From an uncultured Gammaproteobacteria bacterium (lineage in GTDB: Bacteria > Patescibacteriota > Microgenomatia > PFEM01 > CAYPPS01): 63,769 nt of DNA. The stretch lies in contig CAZZNI010000001.1 in NCBI GenBank assembly GCA_964655765.1, positions 1 to 63,769 on the forward strand, given 5' to 3'. Numbering within the stretch: position 1 is the stretch's first letter; every line of letters begins with the position of its first letter. The notes beneath the pieces were generated by a model. The model searched no databases and was not told where the DNA came from. It saw only the letters and a program-made list of their open reading frames with translations. Positions 4,924 to 42,912 of the stretch are shown here, one piece after another. Position numbers and translations under genes: made by a program.

Positions 4924-5250
4924 ATGGCAATTAAGACCGCTTCTAGTTTTAGTAAAAATTTATTTCTAATCGCCCTGATCACAATGGTAACTGTCTTTTT
5001 GTGGATTGGGCTGGAAGTTGTAAGAACCAGTAAAAAGACCACCATCCCCCAACCAACTCAAAATCAAATGCGGCCGCTGAACAGTAAAATTGATCCGGCT
5101 GTTTTTTCTCTGCTTGAGGAAAAAATTGCTCCTTCAAAAGAAGAATTATCAATCCTTCTTCAAAGCCAACCAGCTGCCAACCAACCGTCAACTGACTCTA
5201 GTAAGATAAGCACAGAAAGTGGTAGTTTAGATAGTAGACAAGAAGAATGA
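4924..5250 (+). CDS. Small single-pass membrane protein, unknown function
   Basis: N-terminal TM (LFLIALITMVTVFLWIGL). The 4-nt ATGA overlap with the next ORF suggests co-translation in the same operon. Confidence 0.4.
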   Translation: MAIKTASSFSKNLFLIALITMVTVFLWIGLEVVRTSKKTTIPQPTQNQMRPLNSKIDPAVFSLLEEKIAPSKEELSILLQSQPAANQPSTDSSKISTESGSLDSRQEE

Positions 5251-6620
5251 AAATAAAATTTAAGCAGGTAAAAATACCTACTTTAGTGGGTTTAATTGTG
5301 TTGTTGGCCGGTATCGCCGCCGGAGTTTATTTTATTCAACAAAGCCCTAACTGGTTACTGCGCGCCTCACCAGAAAGCAAGCCAAAACAAGTTAAAATAA
5401 CCAATATAACTGATGGTAGCTTTGCGGTTTCCTGGGTTACTGACGAAGCCACCAGCGGTTTTGTTAAATATTCCACTGACAGCAGCTTTGATTTAGTTGC
5501 CAAAGATGACCGCGACCAGTTAAGCGGTAAAACTAATAATTACAAAACCCATCATGTTACCGTTAAGGGTTTAACCCCGCAAAGCCGTTACCAGTTTAAA
5601 ATCGGCAGTGGTCGAAGTATTTTTGACAACAACGGCCAACCATTCGACACCACCACCGCCCCCAAACTGTCCCAAGCTGAACCGGCCAGTGATGTCGCCT
5701 ATGGTAATGTTGTTAACCAAAACGACCAACCAGTGGAAGGGGCAATTGTTTACTTGTCACTAAACGGGGCCACACCCCTTTCAACCATTAGTAAATCATC
5801 TGGTAACTGGGTGATCCCCCTAAACACTGCCCGCTCAGAAGACTTAAATAATTTTGCCACTTACGATAAAAGCGCTTCAATTGAAGATATTTTTGTCCAA
5901 GCGGCCGACAGCGGTTTTGCCACCGCGATTGCCACCACTGGTAACGATAACCCATTGCCAACAATCAAACTAGGCAATAACCACGATTTTAGAACCACCG
6001 GCGGCAGTAATAACACGGAAAATCCAATTGGCCAAATGCTAGAAGAGCAAAACCCGCCCGATATTGAACTCGATGGTTTAACCAGTAATGATAGCCAAGA
6101 AACAAATTTTGACAATCAACAACTAACTATTATCAATCCCAGCCAAGATGAAAACCTAAATACACAACGACCAGAATTTTTAGGCACCGCACCAGCCAAA
6201 CAAACATTAACCATCACCGTTGAATCAGAACCGGTTTATACCGGCACTGTTCAAGTCGACGAAAACGGCAACTGGTCGTGGGAGCCGCCGGCTGATCTTG
6301 AACCGGGCGACCACACAATTACCGTTTCAATGGCTGACGGTACAACCGAAAGTAAAACTTTTACTGTCTTAGCCCAGGGAGACAGCTCGCTACCAGCTTT
6401 AACCGCAACCCCATCGGCTCAAATCAGCCCAACGCCAACTATTATGCCAACCAGCTCACCAACCCCAACTCCAACCGCAATTGCCAGCCGATCCTCAATG
6501 CCAGCCACTACTAGCGGTGTCCCAACCAGTGGCATTCTAACCCCAACCTTAACCCTTATTGTTATCGGGCTAGGCTTAATTAGTTTTTCTGTAGTTGGCA
6601 AAAGGATATTTCTACTTTAA
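5247..6620 (+). CDS. Cell-surface protein with FN3-like and Ig-like domains, a Pro/Thr linker and a C-terminal PxTG-type sorting signal
   Basis: The FN3/PAP-N-like segment is ITNITDGSFAVSWVTDEATSGFVKYSTDSS...HHVTVKGLTPQSRYQFKIGSG. The TPTPT linker is followed by a VPTSG + hydrophobic + KR tail. Confidence 0.6.
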   Translation: MKIKFKQVKIPTLVGLIVLLAGIAAGVYFIQQSPNWLLRASPESKPKQVKITNITDGSFAVSWVTDEATSGFVKYSTDSSFDLVAKDDRDQLSGKTNNYKTHHVTVKGLTPQSRYQFKIGSGRSIFDNNGQPFDTTTAPKLSQAEPASDVAYGNVVNQNDQPVEGAIVYLSLNGATPLSTISKSSGNWVIPLNTARSEDLNNFATYDKSASIEDIFVQAADSGFATAIATTGNDNPLPTIKLGNNHDFRTTGGSNNTENPIGQMLEEQNPPDIELDGLTSNDSQETNFDNQQLTIINPSQDENLNTQRPEFLGTAPAKQTLTITVESEPVYTGTVQVDENGNWSWEPPADLEPGDHTITVSMADGTTESKTFTVLAQGDSSLPALTATPSAQISPTPTIMPTSSPTPTPTAIASRSSMPATTSGVPTSGILTPTLTLIVIGLGLISFSVVGKRIFLL

Positions 6621-6638
6621 AGTAAGGTAAGACTGAAA

Positions 6639-7424
6639 ATGGAAGAAAAAATTGAAATCGGCAGTCTAAGACAAACAAACCCGGCGGCGGCCAGTAACGA
6701 AACACCGCCTTCACCGCCTATTAATCCCCAACCAAAGGCACCTCAAACTCCGATTGCACCAATGTTGATTGCCGGTTTGGCCTGTTTGTCATTACTAACC
6801 TTAACCTTTTTTGCCGGTAGACAGTTTTTAGGACCGCTGATAAAACCGGTCCCTACAGAAAAATCAGAAAAAATTGAACCTGAACAACCCGAATCGTTGC
6901 CAGAGATTTACTCTGTTGAAGAAAATGACCAACCCTGCAGTCTTGAATTTACTGTCACCGGCTTACCTACCCCGACCGACACACCAACGGTAACGCCAAC
7001 ACCAATCCCCTCTAATAGCCCAACACCAACTCCAACACCACCAGTGATAGTTAACTGTTGGGAGCCTTGCCAGAGCAATAGCGACTGTCCTGACGATTTA
7101 CTTTGTCTTTATGTTGACAGCCAAGAAGACTACCTTTGCGCCAACAGCGATTGCCCAAACGAAGAAAGCTGTACTTGCCCAGGCCCAACTAACAGCCCAA
7201 CGCCGACTAATTCACCAACGCCGATACCAACCAGCTCACCAACCCCAACCCCAACCACACCGCCAAGCGCCAGTGCTACACCAATACCGACCACCCCTCC
7301 GGTTGGCCAAGGCCCAACGCCGACTCCAATTACGCTGGAACAGGCCGGCTTAAGTTTACCGACTATCGGTGTCGCCGGTGGCGGCCTGCTGTTGCTATTA
7401 ACCTCGCTACTGTTCTTGCTCTAG
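6639..7424 (+). CDS. Pro/Thr-rich, Cys-rich surface protein with a C-terminal hydrophobic anchor
   Basis: TM near the N-terminus, PTPTP linkers, and a Cys-rich block (CWEPCQSNSDCPDDLLCLY...CANSDCPNEESCTC). The C-terminus is LPTIG plus a hydrophobic tail. Confidence 0.5.
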   Translation: MEEKIEIGSLRQTNPAAASNETPPSPPINPQPKAPQTPIAPMLIAGLACLSLLTLTFFAGRQFLGPLIKPVPTEKSEKIEPEQPESLPEIYSVEENDQPCSLEFTVTGLPTPTDTPTVTPTPIPSNSPTPTPTPPVIVNCWEPCQSNSDCPDDLLCLYVDSQEDYLCANSDCPNEESCTCPGPTNSPTPTNSPTPIPTSSPTPTPTTPPSASATPIPTTPPVGQGPTPTPITLEQAGLSLPTIGVAGGGLLLLLTSLLFLL

Positions 7425-33090: not shown

Positions 33091-33738
33091 ATGATTAGAG
33101 TTATGAGCAGAATTCTGCCGCGAGCTTTAATTGTTGCAACCGTTTTTTTATTGATCAGCTCCAGCCAAGCGCTGGCAGCTTCTTTGAGTTTGTCACCAGC
33201 GAGCAAGTCGGTAGAAAACGGCGATAGTTTTGCTGTCAATGTTGTTCTGGACACTGATGCCGATAGTGTTGACGCAGTGGACATCATTCTCAATTTTGAC
33301 AGTGACAAATTAGAATACAGTTCCGCCAGCTATAGTACTCTTTTTACCAACACCATCACTCCGTCAGTCAGCGGCGAACAGATCATTTTACGAGCAACTT
33401 CACCAACTGCCGTTACTCAAGGCGGCACCTTTGCCACCATAACCTTTCAAGCTACTGGTACCGGAACGGCCCCGGTTAACTTTGATTTTACCAGCGGCGA
33501 CACCACCGACAGCAATGTCGCCTATCAGGGTGAGGATTTACTCGCCTCTACCAGCAACGGCAGTTATACTATTATTGCCTTAGGGCTAGGCAGTGATGCT
33601 TCCAGTAGTCCAACCCCAACTCCAACGACAGTTAGCGAAGCAATGCCGGAAACTGGTGTGTTAACACCAACCTTGATTGTTTTGCTGGTCGGGGTTAGCC
33701 TGATCGGCCTGCCGCTAGTCTGGACAATAAGAAGATAA
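33091..33738 (+). CDS. Cohesin-like-domain surface protein with an MPETG sortase-type sorting signal
   Basis: Signal peptide, then a cohesin-type block (LSLSPASKSVENGDSFAVNVVLDTDADSVDAVDIILNFDSDKLEY), a PTPTP linker, and MPETG + hydrophobic + RR. Confidence 0.6.
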   Translation: MIRVMSRILPRALIVATVFLLISSSQALAASLSLSPASKSVENGDSFAVNVVLDTDADSVDAVDIILNFDSDKLEYSSASYSTLFTNTITPSVSGEQIILRATSPTAVTQGGTFATITFQATGTGTAPVNFDFTSGDTTDSNVAYQGEDLLASTSNGSYTIIALGLGSDASSSPTPTPTTVSEAMPETGVLTPTLIVLLVGVSLIGLPLVWTIRR

Positions 33739-35832: not shown

Positions 35833-36405
35833 TCACCGCACACTTCTGATAATATCTAAAAAAATTCCCTCGTATCCCGATTCCGGTTTTAGATCGTATT
35901 TAGTAAAAAACATCTGGAAAATGTACAGCTTTTCATTTTTAACCGCATAGACGAAATTGCCCCGCCGCTGCCATTTTATATTCCCCGCACTTATCGTTTC
36001 TCCCTGTTTTTGACCGAAAGCATTTTGAGCTATAAACTGATCAAAAGAATATTGCCGAGCATCGTAACACAAAAACGAAAAAATTGAACTTTTAGGCGGG
36101 GAATTACCCTTAGCCGGCTCATTAAAAGTAGTTTGCGATAACGGCGGTTGAGGCAGAGTCAATTTAACATCCGACACTTGCCAATTTTGGGGATAGTCAA
36201 AAGAAATACTACAAACCTTATCAGCGTACTTTCCTTTTGAGGCAAATTTCTGGCTAGAGTCCAAGCCGTCGCTCAAAAGAGCATTTACATCTTCTCGTTC
36301 TTTTGCGGGTTGTTTTATTAAAAGCAGAACAATAGGGAACAATAGGACAGCAACTATTGTCCCGACAACTATCATTGATCGGTTTTCGCCAGACTTTTTT
36401 GCCAT
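35833..36405 (-). CDS. Membrane-anchored hypothetical protein
   Basis: 190 aa with an N-terminal TM (IVVGTIVAVLLFPIVLLLI). No recognisable family. Confidence 0.45.
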   Translation of the reverse strand: MAKKSGENRSMIVVGTIVAVLLFPIVLLLIKQPAKEREDVNALLSDGLDSSQKFASKGKYADKVCSISFDYPQNWQVSDVKLTLPQPPLSQTTFNEPAKGNSPPKSSIFSFLCYDARQYSFDQFIAQNAFGQKQGETISAGNIKWQRRGNFVYAVKNEKLYIFQMFFTKYDLKPESGYEGIFLDIIRSVR

Positions 36406-36459
36406 CGGTTTATTCTAGCATTTTTTACCAAGCAGTCTGTTACACTAGAACTGTGTTTT

Positions 36460-36600
36460 AAACTTACGCCTTTCTACGGGGCGCCAATTGGAATAACAGT
36501 TCCAATGCCGGGGTCTTCGCTCTCAATTTGAACAATGCTCCGAGCAACTCAGGGAACAACAATATTGGCTTCCGGTGCGCCGTTGCCCCGTAAGTAATTA
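36460..36600 (+). repeat. DGR template repeat (TR)
   Basis: 141 nt, matching the reverse complement of 38327-38466. In frame it reads TYAFLRGANWNNSSNAGVFALNLNNAPSNSGNNNIGFRCAVAP* with 11 AAY codons. It lies 184 nt upstream of the RT ATG on the same strand and is not part of any long ORF. Confidence 0.92.
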
Positions 36601-36783
36601 GCCTGGCAAGGTGAGATTTGCAATAAAATGTTTCTCGCATTTTTGCAACGGGACCGTAAACAAATTAATTACAGGTTTAAAACATATCTCGCCGGCGCTT
36701 TGCCGATGGATAAAGAAAGCGGAGAGGGCGGTTGTTGAACTGGTTTGGGCCAAAAGAACCGCCTTCTTTGCAATTACCACAAA

Positions 36784-37914
36784 ATGTATGCTCGAATAAT
36801 TTCTTTTAAAAACCTGCTTGAGTCTTACTACCGGGCGCGAAGAAATAAAAGATCAAAAAGAAAATTACAAAAGATTGAAGTCAATTTTGAAAACCGACTA
36901 ATCGACATCAAAAAACAACTAGAAAAGGGCTCTTATCAACCAAAACCATACCATCAATTTTTAGTCCATGAGCCCAAAGCCAGGCAAATCAGCGCTCCGG
37001 CGTTGATCGACCGCATTGTCCAACACGCTGTTGTTAATATAATCGAGCCCGTTTTTGATTGCCAGTTTCTGCCAAACACCTTTGCCTGCCGGAAAGGCAA
37101 GGGCCCTCATCTGTGTCTGCGCCAAGTTTCAGCCGTTTACAAAAAAATCAGCCGGACACACACCGTCTTTTACGCTTTAAAATGCGACATAAAAAATTAT
37201 TTTGCCAGTATTAACCATGCGATACTGGCGAAATTTTTGCTTCAATCAATTTCGTGCCCTAAAACGATCGCCCTATTAAAAACAATCATCAATTCTTATG
37301 AAAATTCGCCCGGGAAAGGTATCCCTATCGGTAACCTAACCTCACAGCTTTTTGCCAATATCTACCTTCACCCACTGGACATTTTCATAACCCAAAAACT
37401 TAAGGAGAAAAGCTATTTCCGTTACATGGATGATTTTGTCATTCTTTCGTTTAATAAAAAATATTTAATAGACTTACGCGGTAGGATCAAAGGCTTTCTT
37501 GAAGAAAACCTTAAACTTCAGCTTCACCCCCGTAAGTCAAATATTTTTCGGGCCGACCGGGGTCTGGACTTTGTCGGCTATATAATAAAGCCAAATGTTA
37601 CGCTGATGCGCAAAAAAACTCTGCGACGCTATAAAAAAAGACAAAAAAAGCGTCTAAAACGGCTCAAAAAATATAAAAAACAACTTAAAGATATCCGAGT
37701 ATCAACACAGCTTTCTTTGCTTGAAAATTATCAAAAAAACGGCCCAAAAGAGGAGCCTCTGAAAGAAAAAATTGAGGCTCTCAAAACAAAGTTAAGAACC
37801 TCCAGAAATTCTTTCAAAGGGTTCTTGCGGTTCTCAAAATACGAAAGATTAAAAACCGGCGGGGTAAAAGTGAACGGTATCATCATTCCCCAAATCTTCC
37901 CCAAAAAGAAATAA
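36784..37914 (+). CDS. DGR-type reverse transcriptase
   Basis: RT motifs are PKARQISAPALIDRIVQHAV, DIKNYFASINH, IPIGNLTSQLFANIYL (the DGR-typical xGxxxSQ), FRYMDDFVIL (YMDD) and LDFVGYII, plus a Lys/Arg-rich C-terminal tail. I chose the ATG at 36784 (MYARIISFKNLL). The ORF-track TTG at 36745 is an alternative. Confidence 0.92.
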   Translation: MYARIISFKNLLESYYRARRNKRSKRKLQKIEVNFENRLIDIKKQLEKGSYQPKPYHQFLVHEPKARQISAPALIDRIVQHAVVNIIEPVFDCQFLPNTFACRKGKGPHLCLRQVSAVYKKISRTHTVFYALKCDIKNYFASINHAILAKFLLQSISCPKTIALLKTIINSYENSPGKGIPIGNLTSQLFANIYLHPLDIFITQKLKEKSYFRYMDDFVILSFNKKYLIDLRGRIKGFLEENLKLQLHPRKSNIFRADRGLDFVGYIIKPNVTLMRKKTLRRYKKRQKKRLKRLKKYKKQLKDIRVSTQLSLLENYQKNGPKEEPLKEKIEALKTKLRTSRNSFKGFLRFSKYERLKTGGVKVNGIIIPQIFPKKK

Positions 37915-37916
37915 AA

Positions 37917-38255
37917 TTAATTTTTGTTTGACCTGGTCCAAGCTGTCAACAATTTACCAATTTCATTAATTTTTTCCGCCACGATTGCGTATTTTTTAAT
38001 CGATAAAAAATTAGTGTCTTTGGCAATGCGGACATAAATCCGAAATAAATCTAGGTTGACTGAAATTTGTTTTTGTTCTTGAGCTCGGTCGGGTTTGCTA
38101 TTAGCGATAATGGCTAGCTTAATCATCTCTATATTGGTTTGCAAAAGATAGTTGGACAACAAAAACCGCTGGCTTTTGGGAAACCCGGCAACCATACGGT
38201 GGGTATATAAATACAAATCGTAAAGCTTTTGGAAAATAATCAACTGGTCAATCAT
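37917..38255 (-). CDS. avd: Avd-like accessory variability determinant (four-helix-bundle / 23S rRNA IVS protein family)
   Basis: 112 aa, all-helical. IFQKLYDLYLYTHRMVAGFPKSQRFLLSNYLLQTNIEMIKLAII matches the four-helix-bundle family consensus (FPK..r..L...l). It lies between the VR and the RT. Confidence 0.8.
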   Translation of the reverse strand: MIDQLIIFQKLYDLYLYTHRMVAGFPKSQRFLLSNYLLQTNIEMIKLAIIANSKPDRAQEQKQISVNLDLFRIYVRIAKDTNFLSIKKYAIVAEKINEIGKLLTAWTRSNKN

Positions 38256-38275: not shown

Positions 38276-38295
38276 GCCCCGAAGGACTTCGGGGC
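38276..38295 (-). other. GC-rich hairpin/cruciform downstream of the VR (candidate DGR target-recognition structure)
   Basis: gccccgaag-ga-cttcggggc is a perfect 9-bp inverted repeat (effectively an 8-bp stem with a 4-nt loop). It lies 31 nt beyond the VR 3' end. Neither strand has a flanking U-run, and the element is absent downstream of the TR. Confidence 0.55.
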
Positions 38296-38326
38296 AGATA
38301 TCTTAAGATAATTCGATAGCTACATA

Positions 38327-38466
38327 AAATTACTTACGGGGCAACGCCGCACCGGAAGCCAAGCGGGCGCCCCCTGAGGAGCTCGGAGCAAAGTGCAAAA
38401 GGAGAGCGAAGACCCCGGCACCGGAACTGCTACCCCAATAGGCGCCCCGTAGAAAGGCGTAAGGGC
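38327..38466 (-). repeat. DGR variable repeat (VR), forming the 3' end of the target gene
   Basis: 140 nt. The reverse complement aligns with the TR with differences at 19-20 TR adenines, one C->G (TR 36580) and a 1-nt deletion (TR 36563/36564). Confidence 0.92.
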
Positions 38467-40699
38467 CGCCCGAAGCCGACCCCTGATAATACTGACCAAC
38501 TCTTTGACTGGAGCTCCAAGCGCTATTGGAGGCCTTTAGTTGGTCAAAGCTTAAAGTGCCGTAAGAGGAAACGGCAGTCCATTCCACCCAAGCACTGGGG
38601 TTGCCGACCGGTTTGTCGGCACCATAAATCGTATTGTCAGTCCATCCCCAGAGGTTGCCGGCCAAATCCCAGATAACTTCACCGTTGCTAAGATAATGAG
38701 TTCGTCTTTGGGTGGCGCCAGTACCGCAAGTAGGGTCAACATCTTTGGTGACCGTGCCGTAACAGCCTTTAGTATCATCAGTTGAAGCTTGGAGCCCCAA
38801 AGCCGGGCCATTATCATTGTGGCCGGCAACCAAATATTGACTACCCGGGCTGTTGCCGCAACCAGTGCCGTTTAGGGCGCACCAATTAGATCCCTGCCGT
38901 TCGACATTTCTGGCAATGGTCATCCACTCGTTGTTAGTGATCAGGTGGCCACCGATTGACTGGCAGTAGGTAATGGCGTCAACTCCACTACCGTCAGCGT
39001 CTTGAGCTATTCTGGCGATGGGAGCACCAGCCGCAGAGGAGACAATTTGGCCACCTTTGTCCTCGACACACCGGCACCCGGATAGAATATTTCCCCAAGT
39101 ATCATAGGCAGTGTTGCATGAAGCATGAGCTCCGTCAGCAGTTTCTCCTATTCCATCGCCATCAACATCACATTTGGCTTCGTATTTCATGACACAAAAG
39201 TCACCGGTACCGTAGAGCGGATCGCCAGGGATATGGATAAAGCCGGTGGGGCAAGCGGTTTGAGCATTAGCCGGTGACAACACTTGGGACTCACCGAATT
39301 TGACCGCCCCGCCAAGCAGGTCAACATAAATTTCAAAAAGAGTCCGGTGGTAAGGATAAAGTAAAAGATCATCCATTTTGCCGGCAAAGTAGTTTGGGGT
39401 GGATCCCGCCCGGCCGATAAAAACAGCACCGTCCGTTACCGTCCAAAGTGCCAGCGCCGGGGAAGAAACCAGCCTGCCGTCGACATAAAAACTGGCATTG
39501 TCACCATCGTAGGAAACAGCCACATGTGTCCACTCATCGGTAGAAATACCAGCGCCAGATGAGGTGACGGTGCTGCCGCCAAGAGGCCCAAAAATGAGCT
39601 CGCCGCCGCTGGTCAGCTGAAAGGTGTAACCGTTGGTGTGGGGTTGGGAAACCAGGGCGTAATTGCCAAGCGAAGAAACATAAATCCAAACGGAAATGGT
39701 AATGGCGCCGCCCAGTTGAAAACGGTCATGATTACCCAGATCAACATAATCATCCGAGCCATCGAACAACAGAGCGTAATTGTTGTTGCCCGTCGCCCAT
39801 TGGCTGTTATCGGCAGGAAAATTGACCAAAGCCGCCCGGCTGTAATTGGGAGAATTATTCATTGTTTGTGCCCCCGAACCGTCATCAAAATTCATTTCCG
39901 CTACCGGTTTACCCCTTTCCATTGAATAGGCCAGCGAACCTTCGCTGCGACTGCCGGACAACAACCTAACCTCGTCGACAGACCCGTCTAAAAAATCAGC
40001 GTAAGTGGAAGCACCGGTTTTGGTTGATCCCAGATAAAAATTAGCGGCCGTGTCGGCAATTGAAGTCCCCACCGAAGTGGCAGTCCCCTCCCGAACACCG
40101 TTGATATAGATGTAAATGTTTCCCGGGCTGTCGACGTTATAATAACCCTGAAAAAGATACCATTGGTTAGCTAAAATTTGGGTTTTGCCGGTAGCGGTTT
40201 TAATGGCCGCGGCAGTACCGTCAGGGGAAACTTGGAACTTAGGCCAGGCCCGGCCATCGGCGTCAGTTTGTGTAATCAACCGATAGCTTCTAATATCGGT
40301 CGTTTCATCCCACTTGGCTAGCACTGTTTGAATGTTGTTTTCGGTAGACGAAACGGTATCAAATTTCACCCAAGCTTCAACCGAAAAACTACCGGTTTGA
40401 GAAAAATCGGCCGAATCATCGGCAACCCCATAATCGGTACTGCCGTTAAATTCAGCCCGACGGCCATATTTCCCCACTGTCTTAATACCGGCAGGTGAAC
40501 CCGACACCGCCGTCAAAGACAAATCATTTAATCCAACCCTGTCTTTAATGTTGACACCGCCGCCGGTTCCTTCAAAGTCATAATAAACCGTTGGCGTTTC
40601 CCAAACACTCCAGTCAGCTTCAACCGGACTAACGAAAAAAAATATCGGAACCAAAAATAATAGAAGTTTAAAACCAATGCTTTTTATGAAAGGTAACAT
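38330..40699 (-). CDS. DGR target protein: secreted, two LamG/concanavalin-A-like lectin domains plus a C-terminal FGE-sulfatase/C-type-lectin-fold domain carrying the VR
   Basis: Signal peptide (LLLFLVPIFFFVSPVEA|DW). LamG-type blocks are FNGSTDYG...FSVEAWVKF...IYINGV...DEVRLL and FDGSDDYVDLGN...WTHVAVSYDG...FYVDGRLV...GKMDDLLLY. The FGE/CLec block is AGNLWGWTDN...YAFLRGAYWGSSS. The gene is markedly GC-richer than its neighbours. Confidence 0.88.
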   Translation of the reverse strand: MLPFIKSIGFKLLLFLVPIFFFVSPVEADWSVWETPTVYYDFEGTGGGVNIKDRVGLNDLSLTAVSGSPAGIKTVGKYGRRAEFNGSTDYGVADDSADFSQTGSFSVEAWVKFDTVSSTENNIQTVLAKWDETTDIRSYRLITQTDADGRAWPKFQVSPDGTAAAIKTATGKTQILANQWYLFQGYYNVDSPGNIYIYINGVREGTATSVGTSIADTAANFYLGSTKTGASTYADFLDGSVDEVRLLSGSRSEGSLAYSMERGKPVAEMNFDDGSGAQTMNNSPNYSRAALVNFPADNSQWATGNNNYALLFDGSDDYVDLGNHDRFQLGGAITISVWIYVSSLGNYALVSQPHTNGYTFQLTSGGELIFGPLGGSTVTSSGAGISTDEWTHVAVSYDGDNASFYVDGRLVSSPALALWTVTDGAVFIGRAGSTPNYFAGKMDDLLLYPYHRTLFEIYVDLLGGAVKFGESQVLSPANAQTACPTGFIHIPGDPLYGTGDFCVMKYEAKCDVDGDGIGETADGAHASCNTAYDTWGNILSGCRCVEDKGGQIVSSAAGAPIARIAQDADGSGVDAITYCQSIGGHLITNNEWMTIARNVERQGSNWCALNGTGCGNSPGSQYLVAGHNDNGPALGLQASTDDTKGCYGTVTKDVDPTCGTGATQRRTHYLSNGEVIWDLAGNLWGWTDNTIYGADKPVGNPSAWVEWTAVSSYGTLSFDQLKASNSAWSSSQRVGQYYQGSASGGPYAFLRGAYWGSSSGAGVFALLLHFAPSSSGGARLASGAALPRK

Positions 40700-40723: not shown

Positions 40724-40885
40724 TTGGGTCTTGGGGCAAGAAGTGAAGCTGAGGAAGAAAATTATTATTCTAAGATACCAAAAAAGACAAAAGGCTCTTG
40801 GGCCGGTGATAACTGGCCAGAAATTGAAAAACAAAGAGAAAAAACAGAACAAAAAGCGGCTCAAAAAAGAAAAGAGGCATGGTAG
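40724..40885 (+). CDS. Possible short antitoxin partner of the PIN toxin (tentative; non-ATG start)
   Basis: An open frame from TTG 40724 to TAG 40883-40885 ends ...KGSWAGDNWPEIEKQREKTEQKAAQKRKEAW*. It overlaps the PIN start by 7 nt (40879-40885; toxin ATG at 40879-40881, antitoxin TAG stop at 40883-40885). There is no ATG and no recognisable DNA-binding fold. Confidence 0.25.
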   Translation: MGLGARSEAEEENYYSKIPKKTKGSWAGDNWPEIEKQREKTEQKAAQKRKEAW

Positions 40886-41268
40886 TCTTAGACACAAATA
40901 TCATTATTGACCACCTGCGTCAAAATCAAAACAAAGAAACCACTTTGGCCAGTCTGGCCAAAAAACATGGTCAAGAAACACTTGCTCTTTCAATTATAAG
41001 TGTTCAAGAACTTTATAGTGGTAAAAGTACTGAAATTAAAGAAAAAGAAAAGGATTTACTAACAACAATCGGTCCGCTAAAGATCCTTCCCTTCGATTTT
41101 GAAATCGCTCAACTCGGCGGGAAAATCACTCGAAACAAAAAGGGTTATCTTATTGGTTTAGCTGATGCTGCTATCGCCGCTACCACGATTGTTAATAAAG
41201 CTCAACTATTAACCTTAAACAAAAAGCATTTTCAAGGAATAAAAGGGCTTAAACTTCTGAAAATCTAA
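40879..41268 (+). CDS. vapC: PIN-domain ribonuclease toxin (VapC family)
   Basis: The MVVLDTNIIIDHL N-terminal acidic motif, an internal SVQELYSG, and GLADAAIAATTIVN...LLTLNKKHF are typical of VapC. Confidence 0.8.
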   Translation: MVVLDTNIIIDHLRQNQNKETTLASLAKKHGQETLALSIISVQELYSGKSTEIKEKEKDLLTTIGPLKILPFDFEIAQLGGKITRNKKGYLIGLADAAIAATTIVNKAQLLTLNKKHFQGIKGLKLLKI

Positions 41269-41277
41269 AAGACGGTG

Positions 41278-42912
41278 TTACATCTGAGGCATGCCGCCCA
41301 TACCGCCCATCGACGGGGCTGGGTTGTTCTTTTCTTCTTCCGGGTGATCTGCGACCAAACACTCAGTTGTCAATATCATCGTCGCCGCCGAAACCGCATT
41401 TTGAAGCGCACTTCGAGTAACTTTGGCCGGATCAATAATACCGGCTTCAATCATGTCAACATACTTTTGGCTTAACACATCAAAGCCAATATTTTTACCT
41501 TTATTGCTCCTAATCCCAGCAATTACGACACCACCGTCTGCACCAGCGTTTTGAGCCAGTAATCTTGATGGTGCTTCCAGTGCTTTTTTCAATAACAACG
41601 CCCCGGTCAACTGGTCGCCTTCTAGCTCTTTTGTCTCGATTTGATCGGCCGCTTTAAGCAAAGTTGTTCCTCCGCCAGGGACAATGCCTTCTTCAATTGC
41701 CGCTTTGGTGGCCGCCACTGCATCCTTAACCCTCTCCTGGGTTTCTTTCATTTCCGTTTCGGTTGCCGCTCCGACTTCGATCACCGCTACGCCACCGGTT
41801 AATTTAGCCAGTCTTTCTTCCAATTTCTCGCGGTCAAACTCAGAATCAGTTTTTTCCAATTCATGGCGGATCTGTTTAATGCGGGCTTCAATTGCTGTCT
41901 TATCACCCTTACCCCCAACAATAATGGTTTTATCTTTATCAGCAACTACCCGGCCTGCTTGGCCCAAATCGTTAACTGTCACTTCTTCCAATTTTCTACC
42001 TAAATCCTGGGAAATAACCGTTCCACCGGTTAAAGCGGCAATGTCGGCCAAGCTCTCTTTGCGCCGGTCGCCAAAACCGGGGGCTTCTACCGCCAAAACA
42101 TTAAAAGTACCTCGCAATTTATTAACCACTAAAGTTGCCAATGCCTCACCCTCAATTTCTTCGCCAATAATAACTAGATTCTTGGAAACTTTAACCAGAT
42201 TCTCCAAAAACGGTAGCATTTCCTGAATTGAAGAAATCTTTTTGTCGGTTAACAAAATATAGGCATCTTCAATTACCGCTTCCATGGTATCGGGATTAGT
42301 CACAAAATAGGGGGAAGAATAACCCTTGTCAAACTCCATCCCTTCACGATAATCAATCACCAGCTCCAAGCCCTTGCCTTCTTCAACAGTGACAACTCCG
42401 TCAGTGCCAACTTTCCTTAACGCCTCGGCAATCTTACTGCCGATATTGGCATTTTGTGCCGACACGGTAGCAACTTGAACAATTTTATCTGAATCTTCTT
42501 TTATCACTTTGGCCTGACTCTTAATCGAGGCTAAGGCCTGCTTGCTGGCAATCTCGATTCCTTTGTTTAAGATCATCGGATTAGCACCAGCGGTAATGTT
42601 CTTTATCCCTTCCTCAACAATAGCCTGAGCCAGCACAGTTGCAGTAGTGGTACCGTCGCCAGTAACATCATTAGTTTTTTCCGCTGCTTCTTTGATTAAT
42701 TGCGCCCCCATATTTTCAAACGGATCTTTAAGCTCAATTTCTTTAGCAACAGAAACGCCATCATGAACAACCGTCGGCGCTCCCCATTTTTTATCAAGAG
42801 CAACATTTCGCCCCTTGGGACCCAAAGTTGTTCCAACGGCCTTAGCCACCGCGTCTAAACCCTTCTTGAGTTTTTTTCTGGCGTCTTCAGCGTAGATAAT
42901 GTCTTTGGCCAT
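41278..42912 (-). CDS. groEL: Chaperonin GroEL (Cpn60)
   Basis: [15 protein letters not shown]...GPKGRNV...[12 protein letters not shown]... with a C-terminal GGMGGM tail. Full length, 544 aa. Confidence 0.97.

Follow-up and report, generated by a model that had tools for sequence, protein, structure and literature searches.

A probable diversity-generating retroelement of a Patescibacteria bacterium, with a frameshifted variable repeat

The cassette and its repeat pair

The 63,769-nt stretch of DNA analyzed here, an entire NCBI contig referred to throughout as the window, contains what is very probably a diversity-generating retroelement (DGR), composed of a template repeat (TR), a spacer, a reverse transcriptase (RT) gene, a convergent gene for an accessory variability determinant (Avd), and a target gene whose 3′ end is a variable repeat (VR) (Table 1). 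DGRs are a known kind of element in which error-prone reverse transcription alters the tip of a surface protein, and apart from its frameshifted VR this one is normal for the kind. The target gene comes after avd on the minus strand with the VR beside avd, and the TR and VR flank RT-avd as inverted repeats. The pairing of the two repeats had been proposed in a first-pass annotation made from the letters of the sequence, and a repeat search of the window bears it out, returning the arms 36463-36554/38372-38463 (92 nt) and 36565-36599/38328-38362 (35 nt). No additional VR or remote target was found in the window by this search; a second VR or remote target was rejected as a candidate because just one TR and one VR are present.

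Table 1. Features of the cassette. Positions refer to the window, except in the last row, where they refer to the contigs named.
Feature	Position	Strand	Description
Membrane-anchored protein, 190 aa	35833..36405	-	PsbP/Mog1-like predicted fold; divergent, adjoining TR in every relative of the cassette
Template repeat (TR)	36463..36599	+	137 nt; non-coding here; in frame YAFLRGANWNNSSNAGVFALNLNNAPSNSGNNNIGFRCAVAP*; identical in contigs of seven other samples
TR variable core	36486..36564	+	26 adenines, 11 AAY codons, 20 adenines substituted in the window VR
3′ block common to TR and VR (IMH*-like)	36565..36599	+	TTGGCTTCCGGTGCGCCGTTGCCCCGTAAGTAATT; GC-rich start; single difference from window VR, C36580 vs G
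TR-RT spacer, probably Sp part of DGR RNA	36600..36783	+	184 nt; three hairpins; conserved 3′ module 36668-36772
DGR reverse transcriptase	36784..37914	+	376 aa from ATG; open reading frame (ORF) open from TTG 36745; motifs IGNLTSQLFANIYL, YMDD
Accessory variability determinant (Avd)	37917..38255	-	112 aa, convergent with RT; Pfam bAvd 2.3e-21
GC-rich hairpin	38276..38295	-	8-bp stem GCCCCGAA/TTCGGGGC, loop GTCC, 32 nt beyond VR end
AT-rich stretch between VR and hairpin	38296..38327	-	32 nt, repeated TATC(T) motifs: TTTATGTAGCTATCGAATTATCTTAAGATATCT
Variable repeat (VR)	38328..38463	-	136 nt, 3′ end of target gene; 20 adenine-site substitutions, 1-nt deletion, one C-to-G
Target gene	38330..40699	-	789 aa; hydrophobic N-terminal signal/anchor, two Laminin_G_3 domains, C-terminal FGE-sulfatase-like C-type-lectin-fold domain with VR
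190-aa gene in relatives	L011 2444-3028, L121 264-845, L015 4030-4578, L017 2083-2679, L108 3082-3651, L118 1158-1757		Beside TR

Alignment of the repeats places substitutions at 20 of the 32 TR adenines and at 1 of the 104 non-adenine positions (gap set on T36563; Fisher one-sided p = 9.6e-15), and relative to the TR the VR carries nine A-to-G, six A-to-C, and five A-to-T changes. Every adenine that had been listed as substituted was reproduced (36486, 36492, 36493, 36496, 36504, 36505, 36525, 36526, 36531, 36534, 36535, 36546, 36547, 36555, 36556, 36558, 36559, 36561, 36562, and 36564). The TR frame has exactly 11 AAY codons, all of which are altered in the VR (to Y, G, S, G, L, H, F, S, G, A, and R), in agreement with the earlier reading by hand. 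Codon positions 1 or 2 hold 25 of the 26 adenines of the variable core, and a stop codon is unreachable by any adenine substitution in the TR frame, as had also been claimed. The adenine-specific pattern is real and far beyond chance.

The description of this pair as textbook adenine mutagenesis is correct as to adenine specificity but overstated, given a frameshifting 1-nt deletion and one non-adenine substitution. The statement that no T, G, or C differs fails at two places: the VR is one base short within the TR sequence AACAACAATATT, where every placement of the gap needs one non-adenine event, and local alignment pairs C36580 of the TR with G at VR 38347, within the 35-nt 3′ block. The first-pass translation of the VR had halted at ...GGAR, which is where the frame shifts; the true ORF (38330-40699, minus strand) ends ...GGARLASGAALPRK*. 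At the opposite edge, an extension of the repeat to 36460 had been suggested from three further adenines (36460-36462, aaa vs gcc in the VR). This extension was rejected, and the repeat start was set at 36463, because there is no homology beyond these three flanking adenines and because the TR/VR homology of sister species breaks off at the same CT(A/T)ACGC, which a G/C mismatch immediately precedes. On the VR side, the 5′ flank is the same in four alleles of one sister species, and one unrelated base differs in a fifth allele, from a second sister species.

The 35-nt block comes after the last variable adenine in both repeats. Its one differing position, C36580/G38347, is polymorphic, the TR base C being present in a second VR allele (contig L001, described below), a hint that retrohoming events may differ in where the transferred tract ends on its 3′ side.

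The RT matches Pfam RVT_1 (4e-23) and is 37% identical to brt of Bordetella phage BPP-1 (E 7e-47). In DGR RTs the motif [LIV]GxxxSQ replaces the QGxxxSP of group II introns and is accompanied by a YxDD catalytic site; the translation here contains IPIGNLTSQLFANIYL (the IGNLTSQ motif) and RYMDDF, and its scores against models for group II intron, retron, and defense-associated RTs (DRTs) lie under their cut-offs. Close relatives of the RT that carry a source name are annotated as Patescibacteria, Levybacteria, or Roizmanbacteria. The matches listed in a scan of genome contigs with the RT alignment are mostly distant DGR RTs (35-56% identity), with the close clade not among them. RT residues ∼276-376 (37609-37914) form a Lys/Arg-rich C-terminal extension of ∼100 aa, which is conserved in relatives from the candidate phyla radiation (CPR) and lies outside the matches to phage DGR RTs. 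Avd scores 83 bits against the NCBIfam equivalog DivGenRetAVD (cut-off 80).

Between TR and RT, the spacer has the conserved motifs GGCGNGATT, ACNGGNCC, ATTACA, GATAAAGAAAGC, and TTTGCA, and its structured module is laid out as ATTACA, a hairpin, GATAAAGAAAGC, a long hairpin, and TTTGCA. Alignment of the spacer with RNAalifold folding (seven relatives) yields 32 pairs, with compensatory changes in 18. Rfam holds no family matching the spacer, nor any DGR RNA family, and the matches of a covariance model built on the spacer are confined to the close clade, with none in more distant DGRs. In BPP-1 the spacer is needed for priming of cDNA synthesis (PMC6182149), and from this arrangement we infer that TR plus spacer constitute the template RNA. 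A scan with the sigma-70 consensus finds no promoter upstream of the TR, and a sigma-70 promoter for the TR transcript was accordingly rejected; a conserved TAYACT ∼17 nt upstream of the TR may be guessed to be a promoter element.

Beyond the VR end lie a TATCT-rich stretch, which is conserved in relatives, including those with the target gene in the other orientation, and a GC-rich hairpin. The DNA fold of a 90-nt stretch with this hairpin has an energy of -15.8 kcal/mol (z = -3.9), and hairpins with differing stems are found at the same place in L011, L121, L015, and L108, which are contigs of relatives. Target-recognition hairpins of phage DGRs have a 7-10 bp stem and a 4-nt GRNA loop and lie 4-34 bp from the VR (PMC3240598); the present hairpin fits this range in stem length and distance but not in its loop (GTCC). 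It is a candidate DGR target-recognition hairpin or cruciform, or a terminator remnant, and in the former case may double as a terminator.

The target protein, its frameshift, and the alleles of the variable repeat

The C-terminal domain of the target protein was modeled with AlphaFold2 (pLDDT 91, pTM 0.91), and the top Foldseek matches of the model are TaqVP 5vf4 (E 6.5e-5, TM 0.49), FGE 5nyy, and Mtd 1yu1; a sequence-only search of the PDB with this domain gave no match. PF03781 is also found in homologues of the domain, whose C-termini read (I/V)GFRC(A/V)xx; that of the closest homologue (77% identity) is exactly IGFRCAVAP. In most of these homologues a prepilin-type N-terminal methylation motif stands in place of the LamG N-terminal part. 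A protein cluster look-up places the target in a single-member cluster and reveals no protein-level VR variants.

One base is missing in the VR within TR AACAACAATATT (the VR reads GGCGCCCGCTT), either by deletion of T36563 or by a change of T36563 to C or G plus the loss of an adenine. As assembled, the target ORF ends ...APSSSGGARLASGAALPRK, using the second TAA of TAAGTAA, whereas the end encoded in the TR is ...GNNNIGFRCAVAP. Compared with the family, the frame is shifted over the final 13 codons. The deletion thus shifts the frame and leaves the target without the TR-encoded GFRC end, and the family-conserved ...NIGFRCAVAP* is absent from the target ORF of the window. With the TR-encoded end, the match to Pfam FGE-sulfatase (PF03781) scores 29.4 bits (cut-off 23.3) and extends to position 254 of the 255 in the profile; with the frameshifted end of the assembled VR, the score is 18.1 bits, under the cut-off, and the match ends at residue 223. 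The target as encoded has lost the conserved C-terminal IGFRCAVAP strand, and its function is probably impaired. A protein 52% identical to the target C-terminal domain (P0004, on an 8.4-kb contig, ENA ERZ1426846) belongs to another DGR cassette and ends ...SWHYWLSLRQWSSSNLSIFFI; its end WLSLRQ resembles GFRC read out of frame, apparently another frameshift just before the conserved end.

Contigs from several other public assemblies contain the same RT, Avd, and upstream gene and provide a view of the strain in other samples. Seven other samples yield contigs whose TR has 100% identity to that of the window. L005 (ERZ27252305) has exactly the -1 allele of the window, as does L002/L006 (ERZ27252301) over the part covered, and a different allele is found in L001/L004. 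For 7,563 nt, up to 38346, contig L001 (ERZ27252302) matches the window without a difference; its VR then departs from the TR at adenines alone, by 13 substitutions and the loss of 2 nt, which leaves it in frame -2. Two different alleles share 7.5 kb of identical flanking sequence, so that, as judged from the contig sequences, retrohoming has taken place very recently at least once. The element may still be active, and the conserved structured spacer beside the TR points to a putative RNA intermediate. In a sister species (RT 71% identical), four samples have four different in-frame VR alleles and one TR; non-adenine substitutions are commoner in relatives.

Many contigs of other assemblies break off within the TR or VR, which is what a site that is hypervariable or repeated would lead one to expect, and contigs with the neighboring PIN gene are too short to reach the VR. 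A scan of JGI metagenomes with the VR/TR pattern made degenerate at adenine sites found the TR of the same strain alone (L010) and no further VR alleles, and a scan of viral contigs for the 35-nt 3′ block found no match.

A separate observation concerns contigs L008 (Logan SRR10872663) and L009 (JGI 3300033172), in which the upstream flank and a complete, unmutated TR are joined to post-VR sequence (TATCT stretch, hairpin, avd) when compared with window positions 35952-36599 and 38327-37813; all other samples show the normal TR-spacer junction. This junction would result either from inversion of RT-avd by TR/VR recombination in the 35-nt block or from chimeric assembly at k = 31-33.

Indels similar to that of the window occur in relatives, where AAY runs are again affected, with two +1 insertions and a premature stop in L015, a +2 insertion in L109, and a -1 deletion in L118. 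Frameshifting indels are present in 5 of 20 VR alleles of close relatives (window, L001, L015, L109, and L118), and ORF-breaking, or null, alleles account for 6 of 20 distinct alleles in the close clade, a proportion that is high but comes from a small and non-independent sample. Null alleles with TAG are those of L118 (TAG plus frameshift) and L120 (TAG alone), and in both the TAG stands at a conserved Trp codon and is encoded by the TR itself.

DGR templates are usually stated to avoid stops. In the sister lineages, however, TAG replaces in the TR the conserved Trp codon, which is TGG in the window (36489-36491), and this runs against that statement; the TRs concerned are those of L017 (2738-2869), L108 (from 3716), and L118 (from near 1815; stretch 1766-1935). 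VR alleles at this site read TGG in most cases, or TTG or CGG, with TAG kept in L118 and L120, where the target is cut to 748 aa as compared with 782 aa in L119.

A survey of DGRs reported TR/VR length differences in 25 of 372, of which 11 are frameshifting, with 74% of indels adjoining AAC, and proposed RT/template slippage as the cause (Wu et al. 2018, PMC5758913); single-base indels by the BPP-1 RT-Avd in vitro amount to about 0.1% (PMC6182149). The frameshift is therefore a known minor behavior of DGRs. The window resembles the length-difference DGRs of Wu et al. 2018 in having a frameshifting indel within or beside AAC/AAT repeats of the TR, and differs in frequency, 5 of 20 alleles here as compared with 11 of 372 DGRs there, a rough comparison because their set was curated for putatively functional elements.

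Interpretation and comparison with known elements

The locus combines an adenine-specific pattern, all of the protein and cis components, an invariant TR, and two VR alleles on identical flanks. Interpretation of the repeats as the TR and VR of a DGR is supported by the RT directly downstream of the TR, the Avd gene, and the location of the VR in the 3′ end of an FGE/C-type-lectin-fold gene, and further by a TR that does not vary among seven other samples and by a second, different VR allele on an otherwise identical 7.5-kb background. The best explanation, to which we assign a probability of roughly 0.9, is that this is a chromosomal, recently active DGR of a Patescibacteria (CPR, Microgenomates-like) bacterium. 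By analogy with BPP-1, a transcript with the TR and structured spacer (36463-36783), continuous with the RT gene, would be copied to cDNA by an RT-Avd complex, with misincorporation of nucleotides opposite template adenines. The cDNA would then replace the VR at the 3′ end of the target gene, guided by the 35-nt 3′ block and probably also by the hairpin and TATCT-rich stretch beyond the VR. The deletion in the VR most likely arose by slippage of the error-prone RT on consecutive mis-paired adenines, and later retrohoming from the intact TR could restore the frame.

The element has every DGR feature that can be tested by sequence except a clear pair of initiation of mutagenic homing sites (IMH and IMH*) and the consensus hairpin loop. 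Several points weigh against this interpretation. A single polymorphic position separates the two copies of the 35-nt 3′ block, so that no IMH/IMH* distinction of the BPP-1 kind is evident from the sequence; directionality may rest instead on the differing downstream flanks of TR and VR. The loop GTCC is outside the GRNA consensus, and the equivalent hairpin in relatives is followed by a run of T, as in a terminator. The two VR alleles recovered for the strain are both out of frame, which could also mean relaxed selection on, or decay of, the target. Finally, the assemblies that share the -1 allele may come from related samples or overlapping reads and are not certainly independent.

The out-of-frame alleles, -1 in the window, L005, and L002 and -2 in L001, are evidence for a decaying or silenced DGR, an element that was once active and whose target is now a pseudogene in the making, the TR/VR differences being historical; the unchanged state of the -1 allele in three assemblies is likewise contrary to very rapid turnover. 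We consider this unlikely, however, as neither the RT nor the Avd ORF is broken and catalytic motifs are kept, the TR is perfectly conserved, the remainder of the 789-aa ORF is open in a gene whose frame the intact TR can repair, and the two alleles on 7.5-kb identical flanks indicate very recent retrohoming.

About equally improbable is that assembly or sequencing of a hypervariable region produced the 1-nt deletion as an artefact and that the VR which truly dominates is in frame. Assembly of VRs is difficult, contigs of six other assemblies break in the TR or VR, and the contig pair L008/L009 looks chimeric through the common 35-nt block. Against these points, the NCBI contig shares its deletion with two MEGAHIT assemblies (L005 and L002/L006), and AAY-run indels are known for DGRs and recur in independent relatives from other assemblers. 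Mixing of alleles in a de Bruijn graph, moreover, preserves register and should create no indels in non-repetitive 21-141-mers, an argument from reasoning rather than data. Because three assemblies share the deletion and allele mixing of this kind keeps register, an assembly error is unlikely and the -1 deletion is taken to be a real allele. That the pair is an ordinary diverged inverted repeat, produced by duplication of a gene fragment or by gene conversion and unrelated to reverse transcription, has a negligible probability, since beyond the existence of a repeat nothing further supports it and it is refuted by base-specific substitutions confined to adenines of one copy (p about 1e-14), that adenine-template copy adjoining RT and Avd and being invariant across samples while the other copy varies.

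The recently active DGR favored here resembles that of BPP-1 (mtd-avd-TR-brt) in its Brt-homologous RT (37% identity), its Avd homologue, the position of the TR just upstream of the RT, a spacer of ∼180 nt, adenine-specific differences in AAY codons, the VR at the 3′ end of a gene for a C-type-lectin-fold protein, and a GC-rich hairpin a little beyond the VR. It differs from BPP-1 in being chromosomal in a CPR bacterium, with housekeeping genes on both sides rather than in a phage; in having avd and the target on the strand opposite TR-RT; in having as target a LamG plus FGE-type protein rather than a tail fibre; and in lacking a clear IMH/IMH* difference and a GRNA loop, with a spacer RNA whose sequence and structure are lineage-specific.

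DGRs of CPR bacteria have been described previously, as the "CPR set" of Wu et al. 2018 (PMC5758913) and by Paul et al. 2017 cited therein, and typically have avd on the reverse strand relative to TR and RT (architecture B3, TR-(avd)-RT; PMC5758913). The present element agrees with these in host lineage, as indicated by RT relatives in Levybacteria, Roizmanbacteria, and Patescibacteria, and in its reverse-strand avd, whereas its gene order is TR-RT-(avd)-(target) rather than TR-(avd)-RT.

Comparison of the target with TvpA of Treponema denticola and TaqVP of Thermus aquaticus (PDB 5VF4) reveals in common the Pfam FGE-sulfatase match (with the TR-encoded end), a best structural match of the model to TaqVP and then to FGE and Mtd, and a VR that spans the final ∼40 codons, which in the TR-encoded version close with the conserved GFRC motif. 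In contrast to these proteins, the TM-scores are modest (0.32-0.49), the target has long Cys-rich insertions and two N-terminal LamG domains, and the GFRC end of the assembled VR allele is lost by frameshift.

DGRs in CPR bacteria and frameshifting indels beside AAC repeats are already known (Wu et al. 2018, PMC5758913). To these the present locus adds a well-resolved, very probably recently active DGR from an uncultivated ultra-small bacterium, with cis and trans parts all mapped, and a natural example of two VR alleles on one background. It also teaches that "textbook" TR/VR pairs should be checked for register, as the dominant allele here is frameshifted and the annotated protein is without the conserved end of its binding domain. 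A broader and doubtful proposal is that ORF-breaking VR alleles are a regular, reversible output of DGRs in this CPR clade rather than rare accidents, providing an ON/OFF switch of surface proteins, similar to phase variation, in addition to diversification. The null -1 allele is dominant in three assemblies of the window strain, and an intact TR can rewrite the VR at any time. If null alleles are indeed frequent and reversible in the clade, DGRs would join diversification with on/off switching of surface proteins.

Host context and neighboring genes

Genes elsewhere in the window encode GroEL, tRNA synthetases of Met and Leu/Ile/Val type, UvrD-type helicases, and glycosyltransferases, together with a tRNA-Cys, and a phage origin was rejected given the GroEL, tRNA synthetase, UvrD-type helicase, and glycosyltransferase genes around the cassette.

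The gene for the 190-aa membrane-anchored protein adjoins TR-RT in L011, L121, L015, L017, L108, and L118 though the outer flanks differ, and may be linked to the cassette. In an alignment of seven relatives the protein is 40-54% identical, with an N-terminal transmembrane helix, a conserved C-terminal domain, and an invariant QMFFTKYD motif; the family comprises 22 clusters in 5.8 billion proteins and has no Pfam hits. The AlphaFold2 model has a mean pLDDT of 80, and its top Foldseek matches are PsbP, CyanoP, and Mog1 (TM about 0.4-0.48). This protein is probably not an enzymatic component of the DGR; it may act with the variable protein as a partner at the surface.

Both orientations of the target gene relative to TR-RT-(avd) are found in a single RT clade (58-76% identity), the two groups compared being the window, L011-L015, and L121 on the one hand and L017, L108-L117, and L118-L120 on the other. 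A VR beside avd makes TR and VR inverted repeats, and a VR at a distance of 2.4 kb makes them direct repeats; in both groups the VR is accompanied by the TATCT-rich stretch.

In the region of 40879-41268 (plus strand) and 41278-42912 (minus strand), a gene for a PIN-domain protein, a possible toxin of a toxin-antitoxin pair, lies between the target gene and that for GroEL. Farther away, repeats rich in CCAAC/CCAACC, which encode low-complexity tracts of Pro, Thr, and Asn, are located at 6435-7271 and 33586-33630 inside ORFs 5247-6620, 6639-7424, and 33091-33738 and resemble the linker regions of secreted proteins.

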